Source: Candidatus Lokiarchaeum ossiferum
GTDB taxonomy: Archaea; Asgardarchaeota; Lokiarchaeia; Sigyniarchaeales; Promethearchaeaceae
Reading direction: 5' to 3'
Length of the DNA stretch: 64,000 bases
Assembly (NCBI GenBank): GCA_025839675.1
Contig: CP104013.1
Span: 2,849,121 to 2,913,120 of the forward strand
The translations under genes were made by a program, and so were the position numbers. Below are positions 27,703 to 30,824 of the stretch, piece after piece; the first letter of the stretch is position 1; each line of letters begins with the position of its first letter. Below the pieces are notes generated by a model, which saw only the letters and a program-made list of their open reading frames with translations, did no database searches and had not been told where the DNA came from.

Positions 27703-28446
27703 ATGGGATTATTGGTCAAGCTAAAAAATAGCCAAAAAAAGCAATGGGATTTCTTACTTCAGTGTGCAAAAGAATCGCATTTAGAAGAAAACTTAATTGC
27801 ATTACCCTTTAATAGAGGAGGTTATGGTCTAATAGCCAACCCAGAACAGTCATCTTGGCAATCTTCCTTTACAAGTGTGAATTGGGGATTGTTTCCAGAC
27901 CAAATAATATTTATATTAGATTCACTTGAACAAGCAATGGAAATTGGCATTTTTTCTCCTATTGCTATCAAAATGGCTCAAGAATTTTGGCCCAAAGAAT
28001 TGATATTGCAAGTTCCTATAAATAAATCCCACCCTCTATTTTCTAAACTCCAAAAAACTGTTTCACCTCAAATTTTAGATACCATTTTTCCCTCTGAGAC
28101 AATCAAGTTAATGATCCCGAACGATCTTGTGTTTACCGCTTTTATTCAATTACTAAAAATCCATAAAGCTGTGCCGATATTAGTGGGTATATATGCTCAA
28201 GATGGTTCAGGTGTTCCATGTGTTGATTCAACAAGATTTGCAGAATTATATACAGATAAACGAATAGGAATGATCTTGGATCATGGCACACTTCAAAAGG
28301 GAAGGAACTTAAAAAGTGCCACAATTGTTGAATGTTTAGATGATGTGAACATAGATATTATCAAAGAAGGGTTAATTTCTACCCAAGAGATTTCAAGTTT
28401 TATTGAAAAATGTGATGAGGAAGAATCTACTGATGATGAATTTTAA
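27703..28446 (+). CDS. Hypothetical protein with divergent YrdC/Sua5-like features
   Basis: Weak matches to YrdC fold landmarks (ALPFNRGGYGL like AFPTETVYGL, EFWPKELILQVP like RFWPGPLTL, YAQDGSGVP like SANxSG), but the key residues are degenerate. Confidence 0.3.
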   Translation: MGLLVKLKNSQKKQWDFLLQCAKESHLEENLIALPFNRGGYGLIANPEQSSWQSSFTSVNWGLFPDQIIFILDSLEQAMEIGIFSPIAIKMAQEFWPKELILQVPINKSHPLFSKLQKTVSPQILDTIFPSETIKLMIPNDLVFTAFIQLLKIHKAVPILVGIYAQDGSGVPCVDSTRFAELYTDKRIGMILDHGTLQKGRNLKSATIVECLDDVNIDIIKEGLISTQEISSFIEKCDEEESTDDEF

Positions 28447-28963
28447 TTTAATCGTATCCACTGCACGATCTTATGAGCGACAAGCAGAATGTGAATTATG
28501 GTTTAATCTCTTAGCGATCGGAGATGAAAATCCTATTTTTACTCAAACAGGCAATCCCGGACTAATTTTAGCCCAAACGGATTGCGAACCCCGAAAATTA
28601 ATCAAGCATCTTAAAGAAAGTGTGGAAGTTCATGATCCAAACTCAGTGAACTTCTTGCAAAAAATTTATCCAATCGATGTGGTTGTTCCAACCGAAATTG
28701 ATCTTATCAGACAGGCAACTATTGATTTAGCAGCCAACCACCCGATAGCTAAGGATTCTAATTCCAAATTTCGAATCACCATCCGAAAACGACAAACACG
28801 CTTGAAAACAAATGAAATTATTCCTGTGATAGCTGAAAGTTTTTCAAACCCAGTTTCACTCAAAGATTTTGATTGGAATATACAGATTGAAATCATTGGA
28901 GAAAAAACGGGGATTTCCATTTTAACGGATCATGATTATTTCAAGTTAGTTAATGAAAACTAG
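28403..28963 (+). CDS. Putative THUMP-domain RNA-binding protein
   Basis: The N-terminus NLIVSTARSYERQAECELWFNL resembles stand-alone archaeal THUMP proteins (LLVTCxRGxExxAxxE). Overlaps the upstream gene by 44 nt (translational coupling). Confidence 0.35.
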   Translation: MKNVMRKNLLMMNFNLIVSTARSYERQAECELWFNLLAIGDENPIFTQTGNPGLILAQTDCEPRKLIKHLKESVEVHDPNSVNFLQKIYPIDVVVPTEIDLIRQATIDLAANHPIAKDSNSKFRITIRKRQTRLKTNEIIPVIAESFSNPVSLKDFDWNIQIEIIGEKTGISILTDHDYFKLVNEN

Positions 28964-29053
28964 ATATACAATTTTTTCCTATCTTATTGACTCAATTTTA
29001 CAAAAGTGAAATTTGAAGGATTGAAAGCAAGCCAAAAAAAGAAAGGAGAGAAG

Positions 29054-29173
29054 GCCCCGCATGAACAGCGAACCAATATGGTTCGTAAAAGGAGGAAACC
29101 CCACGAAGGGGCGAAATCAAGGTGACGTTTTCCACATCACCATCCAAAAAGACAAAATAAAATTCATGCGGCG
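29054..29173. ncRNA. Candidate structured ncRNA: a GC-rich island with a 9-bp closing stem enclosing three hairpins
   Basis: CCGCATGAA (29057-29065) pairs with TTCATGCGG (29163-29171). Inner hairpins are CGAACC/GGTTCG (29069-29085), CCCC/GGGG (29099-29111) and GGTGA/TCACC (29121-29141). Local GC is far above the flanking sequence. Strand undetermined. Confidence 0.35.
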
Positions 29174-29594
29174 ACCATAGTTGTTTGTATGATTTATTGT
29201 TCCATTGATCAAAATTCAGCACTACTTGCGAGATTTAACCAATTCAAACAAAAATCTGGGTTTTTTTTTAAATTTTTTCCTCCATCATTTTTTGGAACGT
29301 TGCACCCTCGTTTTCAAGAGTCTAATACTAATTAAACAAGTTTTTCTAATAAATATTGACAATAGCCCAAAACTGACACTATAGAACAAAAAAATTTTGA
29401 ATTTTAGCTTTAAATACTCGAATATGACTTTTAGATTCATATTCAAAAATATGTGTTCATGTGAATAGGAATGGATCTTAATTAAAACAGCATTTTTTAT
29501 ATCTTACAAAGAATACCATGACGCAACTTTTTTGAATTTTCCCTCATTTGAAGGAATAATTAATGTTTTAGAATCTAGGAAATGATGGTCAAAA

Positions 29595-30824
29595 ATGGAA
29601 AAAATGCGAATTGGGATTTTAACTGGAGGAGGAGATTGCCCCGGATTAAATGCTGTTATTTACGGAGCTCTATTACGAGCATATCGTGAAAAAAACATAG
29701 ATGTGGAAATGGTCGGGATAATAAAAGGGTGGAAAGTCTTTGCAATGAATAAAGAAGATATTACACCTGAAATGGTAGATCATTATACACAGGTTTTAGA
29801 AATTGGGGAATTGGATGATTTGCATACAAAAGGAGGGACGATTCTTTATACTTCTCGAACTAATCCTTTCAAAGCTCTAGCAAAAATCAAGGATCCTCAA
29901 GAGAAGGAAGCAAAATCGATTGAAATCGGCAAAGATCTCGCATCCAAATTTAAAATTTTAGGGATTGATGCGTTAATTAGTATTGGAGGAGATGATACCC
30001 AAGGAGTTGCTGCCGCGATGTACAAATATGGTAATGCAAAAGTCTGTGGATGCCCAAAAACGATTGACAATGATTTAGCTGGAACAGATTTCACCTTCGG
30101 GTTTTTCAGTGGAGCCCAACTTGCCAGCAATACCCTCGATAATTTAACCACAACAGCTCATTCCCACCAAAGGATTTTTATAACCGAAATTATGGGACGC
30201 GATGCAGGATGGTTAACCTTGTATAGTGGTTTATCTTCTGGAGCGGATATTATTTTGCTTCCAGAAACTCCCTTCGATTTTGAAAAAAATATTGTTGATG
30301 TATTAAAAAAACGGGCAAATTCGGGCTATAAATACCACATGATTGCATGTTCTGAAGGTGCTTATCCTACAAAAGAATCTCTTGAGAGAGATTTCACCGT
30401 CATCACTCAAGAAGATATCGACAATTTACCTAAAGATTCCTTTGGTAACCCTGAACTACCAAAATTGGGAATTGCAGACAAAATTTCGAAAGAATTAAAG
30501 AATCGAGAAGATCTAATGAAATATTTCAATGATCGTCATGCTCATTATGAAATTCGGTCTGTTGTATTAGGACACACTATGCGAGCGGGTACCCCAAATG
30601 TGTTTGATCGCGTTCTTGGGTTAAGATATGGATGGCATGCTTGTGATTATATTTTACAAGGGGATTATGGAAAGATGGCCGCTTTGAAAGGAACAGAAAT
30701 TGTCCCTGTGGATTTAGTACAAGGTTCGAAAAAGGGATTAATTGATCCAGATTCAGATTTAATTCAAATTCGTAATGCGATGACAAGTGTGAAACACAAA
30801 TCCAAAGAAAAATTATTCAATTAA
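29595..30824 (+). CDS. pfp: 6-phosphofructokinase, pyrophosphate-dependent type
   Basis: PFK signatures GGGDCPGLNAVI, GGDDT and PKTIDNDL. Asp and Lys sit at the two positions that are Gly in ATP-dependent PFKs. Confidence 0.85.
   Translation: MEKMRIGILTGGGDCPGLNAVIYGALLRAYREKNIDVEMVGIIKGWKVFAMNKEDITPEMVDHYTQVLEIGELDDLHTKGGTILYTSRTNPFKALAKIKDPQEKEAKSIEIGKDLASKFKILGIDALISIGGDDTQGVAAAMYKYGNAKVCGCPKTIDNDLAGTDFTFGFFSGAQLASNTLDNLTTTAHSHQRIFITEIMGRDAGWLTLYSGLSSGADIILLPETPFDFEKNIVDVLKKRANSGYKYHMIACSEGAYPTKESLERDFTVITQEDIDNLPKDSFGNPELPKLGIADKISKELKNREDLMKYFNDRHAHYEIRSVVLGHTMRAGTPNVFDRVLGLRYGWHACDYILQGDYGKMAALKGTEIVPVDLVQGSKKGLIDPDSDLIQIRNAMTSVKHKSKEKLFN

Follow-up and report, generated by a model that had tools for sequence, protein, structure and literature searches.

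What does a GC-rich island in the otherwise AT-rich spacer between two protein-coding genes of an Asgard archaeon encode? The window analyzed in this study is a 64-kb stretch of the Candidatus Lokiarchaeum ossiferum genome (64,000 nt; contig CP104013.1, positions 2,849,121 to 2,913,120), numbered here from its first nucleotide. The spacer in question separates a gene for a protein with a THUMP domain (28403-28963, plus strand; PF02926, E = 2.9e-6) from a phosphofructokinase (PFK) gene (29595-30824, plus strand). A sequence-only reading of this DNA had proposed that the island folds into a novel structured non-coding RNA (ncRNA). Conservation, covariation, and absence from Rfam support that proposal: the island very probably carries, on its minus strand, a conserved gene for a structured ncRNA whose family is not in Rfam, and comparison of its homologues indicates a previously undescribed small RNA (sRNA) family of about 124 nt in Promethearchaeaceae-type Asgard archaea. 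Asgard archaea are close relatives of eukaryotes; to our knowledge, almost nothing is known of their ncRNAs beyond ribosomal RNA (rRNA), transfer RNA (tRNA), RNase P, and signal recognition particle RNA, and our literature searches returned no description of Asgard sRNAs.

The GC content is 0.50 over positions 29050-29149 and 0.23-0.33 in the flanking spacers, in agreement with the island that had been described. Its stems were recovered with the positions and sequences given for them: a 9-bp closing stem (CCGCATGAA at 29057-29065 with TTCATGCGG at 29163-29171) encloses the hairpins CGAACC/GGTTCG, CCCC/GGGG, and GGTGA/TCACC. These 9 bp are present but are not the full extent of the closing helix, which in folding extends outward as GGCC/GGUC with a 1-nt bulge; the element therefore covers 29053-29176, or 124 nt. 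The claim that such nested stems exceed chance was borne out on both strands, with folds of -40.6 kcal/mol (z = -5.31) for the plus strand and -53.2 kcal/mol (z = -6.63) for the minus strand of the window element, and none of 200 dinucleotide shuffles was as low in either case. Nine family members folded singly showed a common architecture each time (z = -5.0 to -7.9; 0 of 200 shuffles), and in every independent fold one base, whose identity (G, U, A, or C) varies among members, bulges out of the closing helix 3-4 bp from its end. These single-sequence folds are independent of covariance model R1, which scores the window element at 109.1 bits (E ~1e-23, E-values of this model being rough). The RNA consists of a closing helix (P1), three hairpins (P2 to P4), and three joining strands (J1 to J3), all of which are single-stranded and pyrimidine-rich:

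29053-29176, minus strand (read from 29176 to 29053): whole RNA, with closing helix P1 and hairpins P2, P3, and P4 round a multi-way junction; minimum free energy -52 to -53 kcal/mol
29162-29176, minus strand: 5′ strand of P1, GGUC-G-CCGCAUGAAU, with a 1-nt bulge after the first 3-4 bp (from covariation)
29141-29159, minus strand: single-stranded segment J1, UAUUUUGUCUUUUUGGAUG, holding AUUUUG and CUUUUUGG, which are Sm-site-like (from alignment A6)
29121-29141, minus strand: hairpin P2, GGUGAUGU / ACGUCACC (from covariation)
29113-29120, minus strand: linker J2, UUGAUUUC (from alignment A6)
29098-29112, minus strand: hairpin P3, GCCCC / GGGGU (from covariation)
29086-29097, minus strand: pyrimidine-rich linker J3, UUCCUCCUUUUA (from alignment A6)
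29069-29085, minus strand: hairpin P4, CGAACCA / UGGUUCG, with a semi-conserved U-rich loop (from covariation)
29053-29066, minus strand: 3′ strand of P1, GUUCAUGCGGGGCC (from fold and covariation)

Searches with the window PFK protein led to metagenome-assembled genomes labelled Promethearchaeum sp. (L001-L003; 84-85% identity), which belong to the Asgard family Promethearchaeaceae. In these, the element occupies the matching intergenic position, its stems diverged but complementary and its linkers identical. Further syntenic copies were obtained by tracing THUMP homologues to their contigs, namely in L137 (whose THUMP protein is 90% identical to that of the window), L146-L148, L142, L141, and L140, the last being a contig with a protein that NCBI names Candidatus Harpocratesius. 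A metagenome scan with the 17-mer TTTTGTCTTTTTGGATG from J1 added, among the matches listed, a syntenic copy in L071 and copies outside synteny in L011, L032, L035, and L110. This pattern is too unspecific and returned mostly chance matches, with at least five true members among the 120 loci listed; the spread of the family is therefore underestimated. Copies lying between THUMP and PFK genes are those of L001-L003, L071, L137, L140, L141, L142, and L146. The window itself contains one copy according to an unfiltered R1 search, the next best match scoring 15.5 bits (E = 0.2).

Compensatory changes were identified in all four helices in alignment A6, which comprises 14 R1-aligned matches (13 distinct sequences) and, being fitted to R1, favours the structure. 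Canonical pairs fill 94.6% of the pair cells in A6, and both sides have changed in 28 of the 32 pairs. The covariation score is 0.774, compared with 0.265 for shuffled alignments, and none of 500 shuffles reached 0.774; when the 3′ partners were slid by 1-3 columns as a control, the score was 0.09-0.15 and 35-45% of cells were paired. Two-sided changes affect 11 of 12 pairs in P1 (91.7% of cells paired), seven of eight in P2 (98% paired, the first pair being an invariant G-C), five of six in P3 (91%), and five of six in P4 (100%). The conservation and covariation in related intergenic regions on which the sequence-only reading had staked its proposal are thus both present.

The helix cells of A6, taken in the minus-strand sense of the window, include 31 G·U/U·G cells and 3 A·C/C·A cells, and about 88% of them would pair if the other strand carried the RNA. 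Because G·U outnumbers A·C 31 to 3, the RNA is assigned to the minus strand. Fold stability also favours the minus sense in all four members compared, at -52.0 versus -39.1 kcal/mol in the window, -56.2 versus -52.0 in L001, -49.1 versus -37.2 in L032, and -40.4 versus -36.4 in L110.

Comparison of the window with L137 points to very strong purifying selection on the RNA, which is identical at 124 of 124 positions, whereas identity is 83.6% for the THUMP coding sequence, 86.0% for the PFK coding sequence, and 52% and 70% for the spacers. An RNA gene is here more conserved than the adjoining gene for a glycolytic enzyme. Across the family, variation is concentrated in the helices and conservation in the joining strands. 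The most conserved parts of the element are thus the single-stranded linkers and not the GC-rich stems. J1 (19 nt) is identical in 13 of 13 distinct members, among them six lineages found by synteny alone (the window, the L001 group, L003, L140, L141, and L142). A weak GUCU/GGAU mini-hairpin inside J1 is predicted in every fold and lies beyond the covariation test because its sequence is invariant. J2 follows the consensus C-UUGAUUU, which distant members replace by UUAAUU or UUAUUC. J3 is pyrimidine-rich in all members, and in seven of the 13 distinct ones (the window, L142, and the L001 group except L003) it carries CCUCC, an anti-Shine-Dalgarno (anti-SD)-like sequence; in place of CCUCC, the J3 core reads CCUCU in L003 and L032, AUCUACUUUUAC in L140, UCUUUUUCUGC in L141, AUCUCUUUCUCU in L011, CCUUUCUUUUUC in L110, and GUCUACUUCUUC in L035.

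None of the six reading frames stays open throughout the members, each having stops in several of them, and the distance from J1 to J2 (17, 19, 20, 26, 27, or 37 nt) differs among members by amounts that are not multiples of 3. Two open reading frames (ORFs) cover the RNA in the window, one of 39 aa on the plus strand (29061-29180) and one of 74 aa on the minus strand (28998-29222), and neither is conserved. Both are considered accidental because no frame is kept and the linker spacings are out of frame; gene callers could list either of them as a hypothetical protein.

All 4227 covariance models of Rfam 15 were run at gathering level and at E <= 10 against the window and eight relatives. The 64-kb window yielded no gathering-level match, and nothing at E <= 10 overlaps the RNA in the eight relatives. 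The match that overlaps the window element, suhB/mmgR, scores 17.3 bits (gathering threshold 41; E = 0.45) and arises from the CCUCC tract alone. With no significant match in Rfam 15, the objection that the element might belong to a known family fails.

Several known RNA classes and other readings were considered and rejected. An ordinary, intron-containing, or split tRNA is contradicted by negative results from ARAGORN (window and eight loci) and from the Rfam tRNA model, and no T-loop sequence was seen within the element on inspection of A6, so that the denial of a tRNA in the sequence-only reading holds. It had likewise noted no C/D boxes, and a box C/D sRNA was rejected on the conserved RUGAUGA or CUGA missing from A6; a GUGAUGU in P2 of the window has a covarying sequence in its place in relatives, and the one C/D match in a 500-nt Rfam scan, DdR11, scores 14.2 bits (gathering threshold 65; E = 4.3), lies on the opposite strand, and overlaps only partially. 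GGAUG[P2]CUUGA might be read as a K-turn or C/D motif; its geometry is wrong (GGAU...UUGAU flanking P2) and the boxes are missing. For a box H/ACA sRNA, P2 to P4 are short uninterrupted helices with no pseudouridylation pocket, and there is no conserved ACA. A miniature inverted-repeat transposable element (MITE) does not fit a single copy in the 64-kb window with terminal stems that differ between members yet stay paired. A small protein encoded by the 39-aa plus-strand ORF, which has an SD-like GGAGAG upstream, or by the 74-aa minus-strand ORF was rejected on stops in relatives and rare GC-rich codons. A riboswitch or other cis-acting leader is disfavoured by the opposite-strand downstream gene in ten syntenic loci and by unrelated downstream ORFs in four others. 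In J3, CCUUUUAC resembles U5 loop 1; J3 is not conserved beyond close relatives, which also weakens the case for a 16S 3′-end mimic or anti-SD sponge as a family-wide role.

The genomic setting bears on how the RNA could act. Neighbouring genes at the syntenic loci encode THUMP, PFK, short-chain dehydrogenase/reductase (SDR), and thiolase proteins. In every syntenic copy THUMP and PFK are encoded on one strand and the element on the other, so that the RNA is convergent with the former and divergent from the latter, and the gene next downstream of the RNA is always on the opposite strand at ten syntenic loci. Without a same-strand downstream gene at the chromosomal loci, a cis-regulatory role is unlikely and action in trans is indicated. 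The position directly downstream of a gene for a THUMP-like RNA-binding protein, to which attention had been drawn, is real, the PF02926 gene ending at 28963, but the two genes are convergent, are not co-transcribed, and are not universally adjacent. A functional tie to the THUMP/Tan1-like gene is not supported, given this convergence, the copies of the RNA elsewhere, and the THUMP-PFK adjacency that also occurs without the RNA. In L149 and L151, the order thiolase-SDR-SDR-Sua5-like-THUMP-PFK is kept but the RNA is absent; L139, L145, and L150 have a different neighbour gene and no RNA. The THUMP-PFK spacers without the RNA (L149:3166-3245 and L151:3567-3662) measure only 78 or 94 nt, and the nearest RNA-bearing relative of both is L141, with a THUMP protein 66% identical to that of L151 and 55% identical to that of L149. 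This relationship, together with the kept gene order, suggests that the RNA gene was lost or relocated.

Candidate transcription signals flank the RNA on both sides:

29177-29220, minus strand: probable promoter region with A/T-rich TATA-like boxes
29034-29052, minus strand: U-rich 3′ flank, UUCUCUCCUUUCUUUUUUU, a probable archaeal oligo-U terminator

An oligo-U run is a requirement of archaeal termination. In 11 of the 13 members, a run of at least four T starts no more than about 15 nt past P1, and ten of these have runs of at least five. Syntenic members resemble one another in the immediate 5′ flank, (A)CAAC(N)AU. In most members, TATA-like octamers have their centres at about -25 to -33, counted from the first G of P1; those of L011 (TTTTTATAT), L035 (CTTTAAATAC), L032, and L001-L003 stand out most clearly. 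In AT-rich DNA, such T-runs and TATA-like boxes are consistency checks and no proof.

From the structure, strand, conservation, and non-coding nature of the RNA we infer its transcript ends, its action in trans, and a protein partner. Transcription would begin at an archaeal promoter, A/T-rich and immediately upstream of P1, and would end at the oligo-U tract just past P1. Its covarying helices P1-P4 would serve as a scaffold that presents three pyrimidine/U-rich strands at the junction, the invariant 19-nt J1 (UAUUUUGUCUUUUUGGAUG) being the functional site, and the RNA would work in trans as the core of a ribonucleoprotein (RNP). Two tandem Sm-site-like tracts (AUUUUG and CUUUUUGG) lie in J1 between two helices and would dock a sequence-specific protein, most likely a ring of Sm-like archaeal proteins (SmAPs), leaving J2 and J3 free for contact with purine-rich RNA. 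Archaeal SmAP rings bind U-rich single-stranded RNA (PMC3710371, PMC5587771), which is held at the ring pore (PMC3710371), and the consensus of the eukaryotic Sm site is AAUUUUUGG (PMC5587771). A stand-alone, trans-acting sRNA that serves as RNP scaffold, with J1 as protein docking site and an Sm-like protein as the foremost candidate, is on balance the probable reading, held with reserve; that a SmAP specifically is the partner of J1 is a tentative suggestion drawn from the motif, and we would not expect it to hold.

Several observations weigh against this reading. The SmAP partner is suggested by a resemblance of motifs only. Between CUUUUUGG and the AAUUUUUGG consensus, seven of nine positions agree and the first positions differ, and a ring that binds oligo-U would need less than the strict invariance of all 19 nt of J1. 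Four of the 13 members were retrieved by an exact J1 17-mer; the J1 identity is circular for these four, because they were selected on 17 of its bases. The absence of the RNA from the locus in L149, L150, and L151 may mean that it is dispensable or has moved. On the side of transcription, the TATA-like box of the window itself is poorly placed and ambiguous in position, and the A/T block of L001-L003 lies only about 10 nt from P1.

Guide RNAs typically consist of invariant guide segments within variable scaffolds, and the three single-stranded, pyrimidine-rich linkers could also belong to an antisense or guide sRNA. In that case J1, together with J3 (UCCUCCUUUUAC) where CCUCC is present, would pair with purine-rich targets, for which mRNA ribosome-binding sites or a conserved stretch of rRNA or its precursor are candidates, and would thereby control translation or the processing of RNA, with the helices doing no more than present the guides. 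The complement of J3, GUAAAAGGAGGA, is a strong SD-like sequence, and the weak Rfam mmgR/suhB similarity, stemming solely from the CCUCC tract, points the same way. CCUCC, however, is missing from six of the 13 distinct members, J1 shows none of the U/C or G/A wobble-neutral variation that pure pairing would tolerate, and the 64-kb window holds no J1-complementary site (<=3 mismatches) except the gene itself; a guide function is possible but doubtful. It is more improbable still that the RNA primarily serves plasmids, viruses, or integrative elements of Lokiarchaeia, acting for instance in replication or copy control, in maintenance, or as a cofactor of recombination, the THUMP-PFK copy having been captured or domesticated. 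This would account for patchy presence at the chromosomal locus and for non-syntenic copies in element-like settings, next to a serine recombinase in L011, a ParA/ArsA-like ATPase and ORFans in L035, and an att-like tRNA fragment in L110. Against it, the chromosomal copy holds its position and orientation in at least five lineages of THUMP (49-55% identical), under very strong purifying selection; no members were found in collections of mobile elements (two scans of IMG/VR, and GenBank phages and plasmids); and the four contexts have no protein in common, their mobile-element status being itself inferred.

A cis-regulatory leader, such as a riboswitch- or attenuator-like aptamer, or a self-cleaving ribozyme built on a four-way junction has very little probability. 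Compact multi-helix junctions with conserved joining strands are typical of aptamers and small ribozymes, and in all four non-syntenic copies a same-strand ORF begins about 13 to 48 nt downstream, past the T-tract. Those four ORFs are, however, unrelated; the gene downstream lies on the other strand at each of the ten syntenic loci, leaving nothing to regulate in cis; no riboswitch or ribozyme family matched at E <= 10; and the helices lack the conserved internal loops of hairpin and twister-sister ribozymes. That the locus holds no RNA gene at all, and the island is instead a small protein gene, a DNA-level palindrome or MITE, or a chance structure, is effectively refuted. The window does have ORFs over the element on both strands and a GGAG-rich stretch before a plus-strand ATG, but stops occur in every frame in several members, indels are not multiples of 3, changes in the stems are compensatory, the strand-asymmetric G·U pattern requires RNA, the window contains a single copy with no repeats, and the folds lie 5 to 8 standard deviations beyond shuffles.

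For the reading as a stand-alone RNP scaffold, the closest analogies are functional, not homologous. The compact structured RNA of ~120 nt, ending near oligo-U, with a U-tract ending in GG (CUUUUUGG, preceded by AUUUUG) between two helices, is like Sm-class small nuclear RNAs (snRNAs) and sRNAs bound by Hfq or SmAPs; the Sm site (RAU4-6GR / AAUUUUUGG) is helix-flanked, as J1 is by P1 and P2. Unlike in snRNAs, where the site precedes the 3′ terminal hairpin, the J1 motif lies inside a multi-helix junction, and the RNA has no sequence or covariance-model similarity to Rfam snRNAs. Y RNAs are stand-alone transcripts of ~100-130 nt with a long closing stem that has a conserved bulge near its base, a pyrimidine-rich interior, and an oligo-U end. 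Size, bulged closing stem, pyrimidine-rich interior, and a probable oligo-U end are shared with them and with the bacterial Y-like RNAs bound by Ro60/Rsr, but Rfam Y_RNA gave no match at E <= 10, the bulged base varies here, and the interior consists of three perfect hairpins and not of a large loop or tRNA-like module; among the neighbours of the RNA locus, no TROVE/Ro gene was seen. Base-composition screens of AT-rich archaea reportedly uncovered GC-rich ncRNAs, among them the Hgc RNAs of Methanocaldococcus and Pyrococcus (Klein et al. 2002), and the present RNA is likewise a stand-alone archaeal gene in a GC-rich island of an AT-rich spacer; its host, however, is a mesophilic Asgard archaeon of about 30-35% GC, its structure is backed by covariation, and it has no similarity to the Rfam models HgcC, HgcE, HgcF, and HgcG. 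A closing helix with three hairpins also recalls the tRNA cloverleaf and the four-helix junction of U1 snRNA, although this RNA lacks a T-loop, D-loop, and anticodon arm, and its linkers span 8-20 nt and not 0-2.

Freely covarying helices around an unchanging 19-nt single strand form an unusually clear signature, and R1 with A6 could seed an Rfam family and improve Asgard genome annotation. Promethearchaeaceae include the first cultured Asgard archaeon, and the RNA is directly testable in the cultured Promethearchaeum syntrophicum. An Sm-like partner would make the RNA relevant to how Sm-RNA particles originated before eukaryotes. Should it instead act as a guide or sponge on purine-rich sites, the Asgard lineage would have its first defined regulatory sRNA. 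In its furthest form, a stable, sequence-specific SmAP/Lsm ring on AUUUUGUCUUUUUGG of a dedicated scaffold RNA would be an Asgard Sm-type RNP core, a prokaryotic counterpart or precursor of the eukaryotic Sm-class snRNP design; we regard this as a long shot, in a further twist of which mobile elements would carry their own RNA copies to exploit or mimic that RNP.

The four non-syntenic copies, whose contexts share no protein, stand in settings that look like mobile elements. The divergent copy of L011 (L011:7214-8026; Ga0209262_10001724) starts 38 nt after, and on the same strand as, a gene for a 212-aa serine recombinase (Resolvase N-terminal domain, E = 9e-21), and that of L032 precedes an uncharacterised 194-aa ORF. 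In L035 (L035:144-13925; Ga0315291_10001250), the RNA copy lies 26 nt after the gene for a rare ParA/ArsA-like ATPase, for which only five proteins with E <= 1e-10, one being its own cluster, were found among 5.8 billion sequences; a homologue occurs on a 201-kb contig, at the contig end. The RNA is followed there by a small zinc-ribbon ORF and then by at least ten ORFs in a row that match nothing in Pfam at gathering level. One of them has a weak PHROG 'DNA topoisomerase' match, and the whole has the look of an uncharacterised archaeal virus or plasmid. L110 (L110:1305-1343; Ga0307928_10037721) has a fragment resembling a tRNA 3′ half directly 5′ of its RNA copy (T-arm GAAGG-TTCAAAT-CCTTC plus CCGAGTC, no 5′ half), with a TATA-like TTTTTAATAA about 60 nt upstream. 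ARAGORN and Rfam are negative for this fragment. It may be what is left of the att site of an integrative element, or else one half of a split tRNA; the contig is rich in zinc-ribbon ORFans. No RNA member was found in IMG/VR (two scans) or, by BLAST, among GenBank phages and PLSDB plasmids. The IMG/VR matches (L152-L205) include many viral contigs with GTCTTTTTGGATG...CTTRWTT, none of which matches R1; an identical 45-nt span marks these as an unrelated conserved phage sequence.

Two homologues of the THUMP protein (P0004 and P0012) are named TAN1 by the Joint Genome Institute. The THUMP/Tan1-like ORF of the window, whose first possible start is a TTG at 28403, overlaps by 44 nt a preceding ORF of 247 aa (both within 27703-28963), which has no Pfam match in the window and homologues with weak Sua5/YciO/YrdC matches in relatives. 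These two ORFs, a unit conserved across Promethearchaeaceae, may represent a tRNA-modification gene pair.

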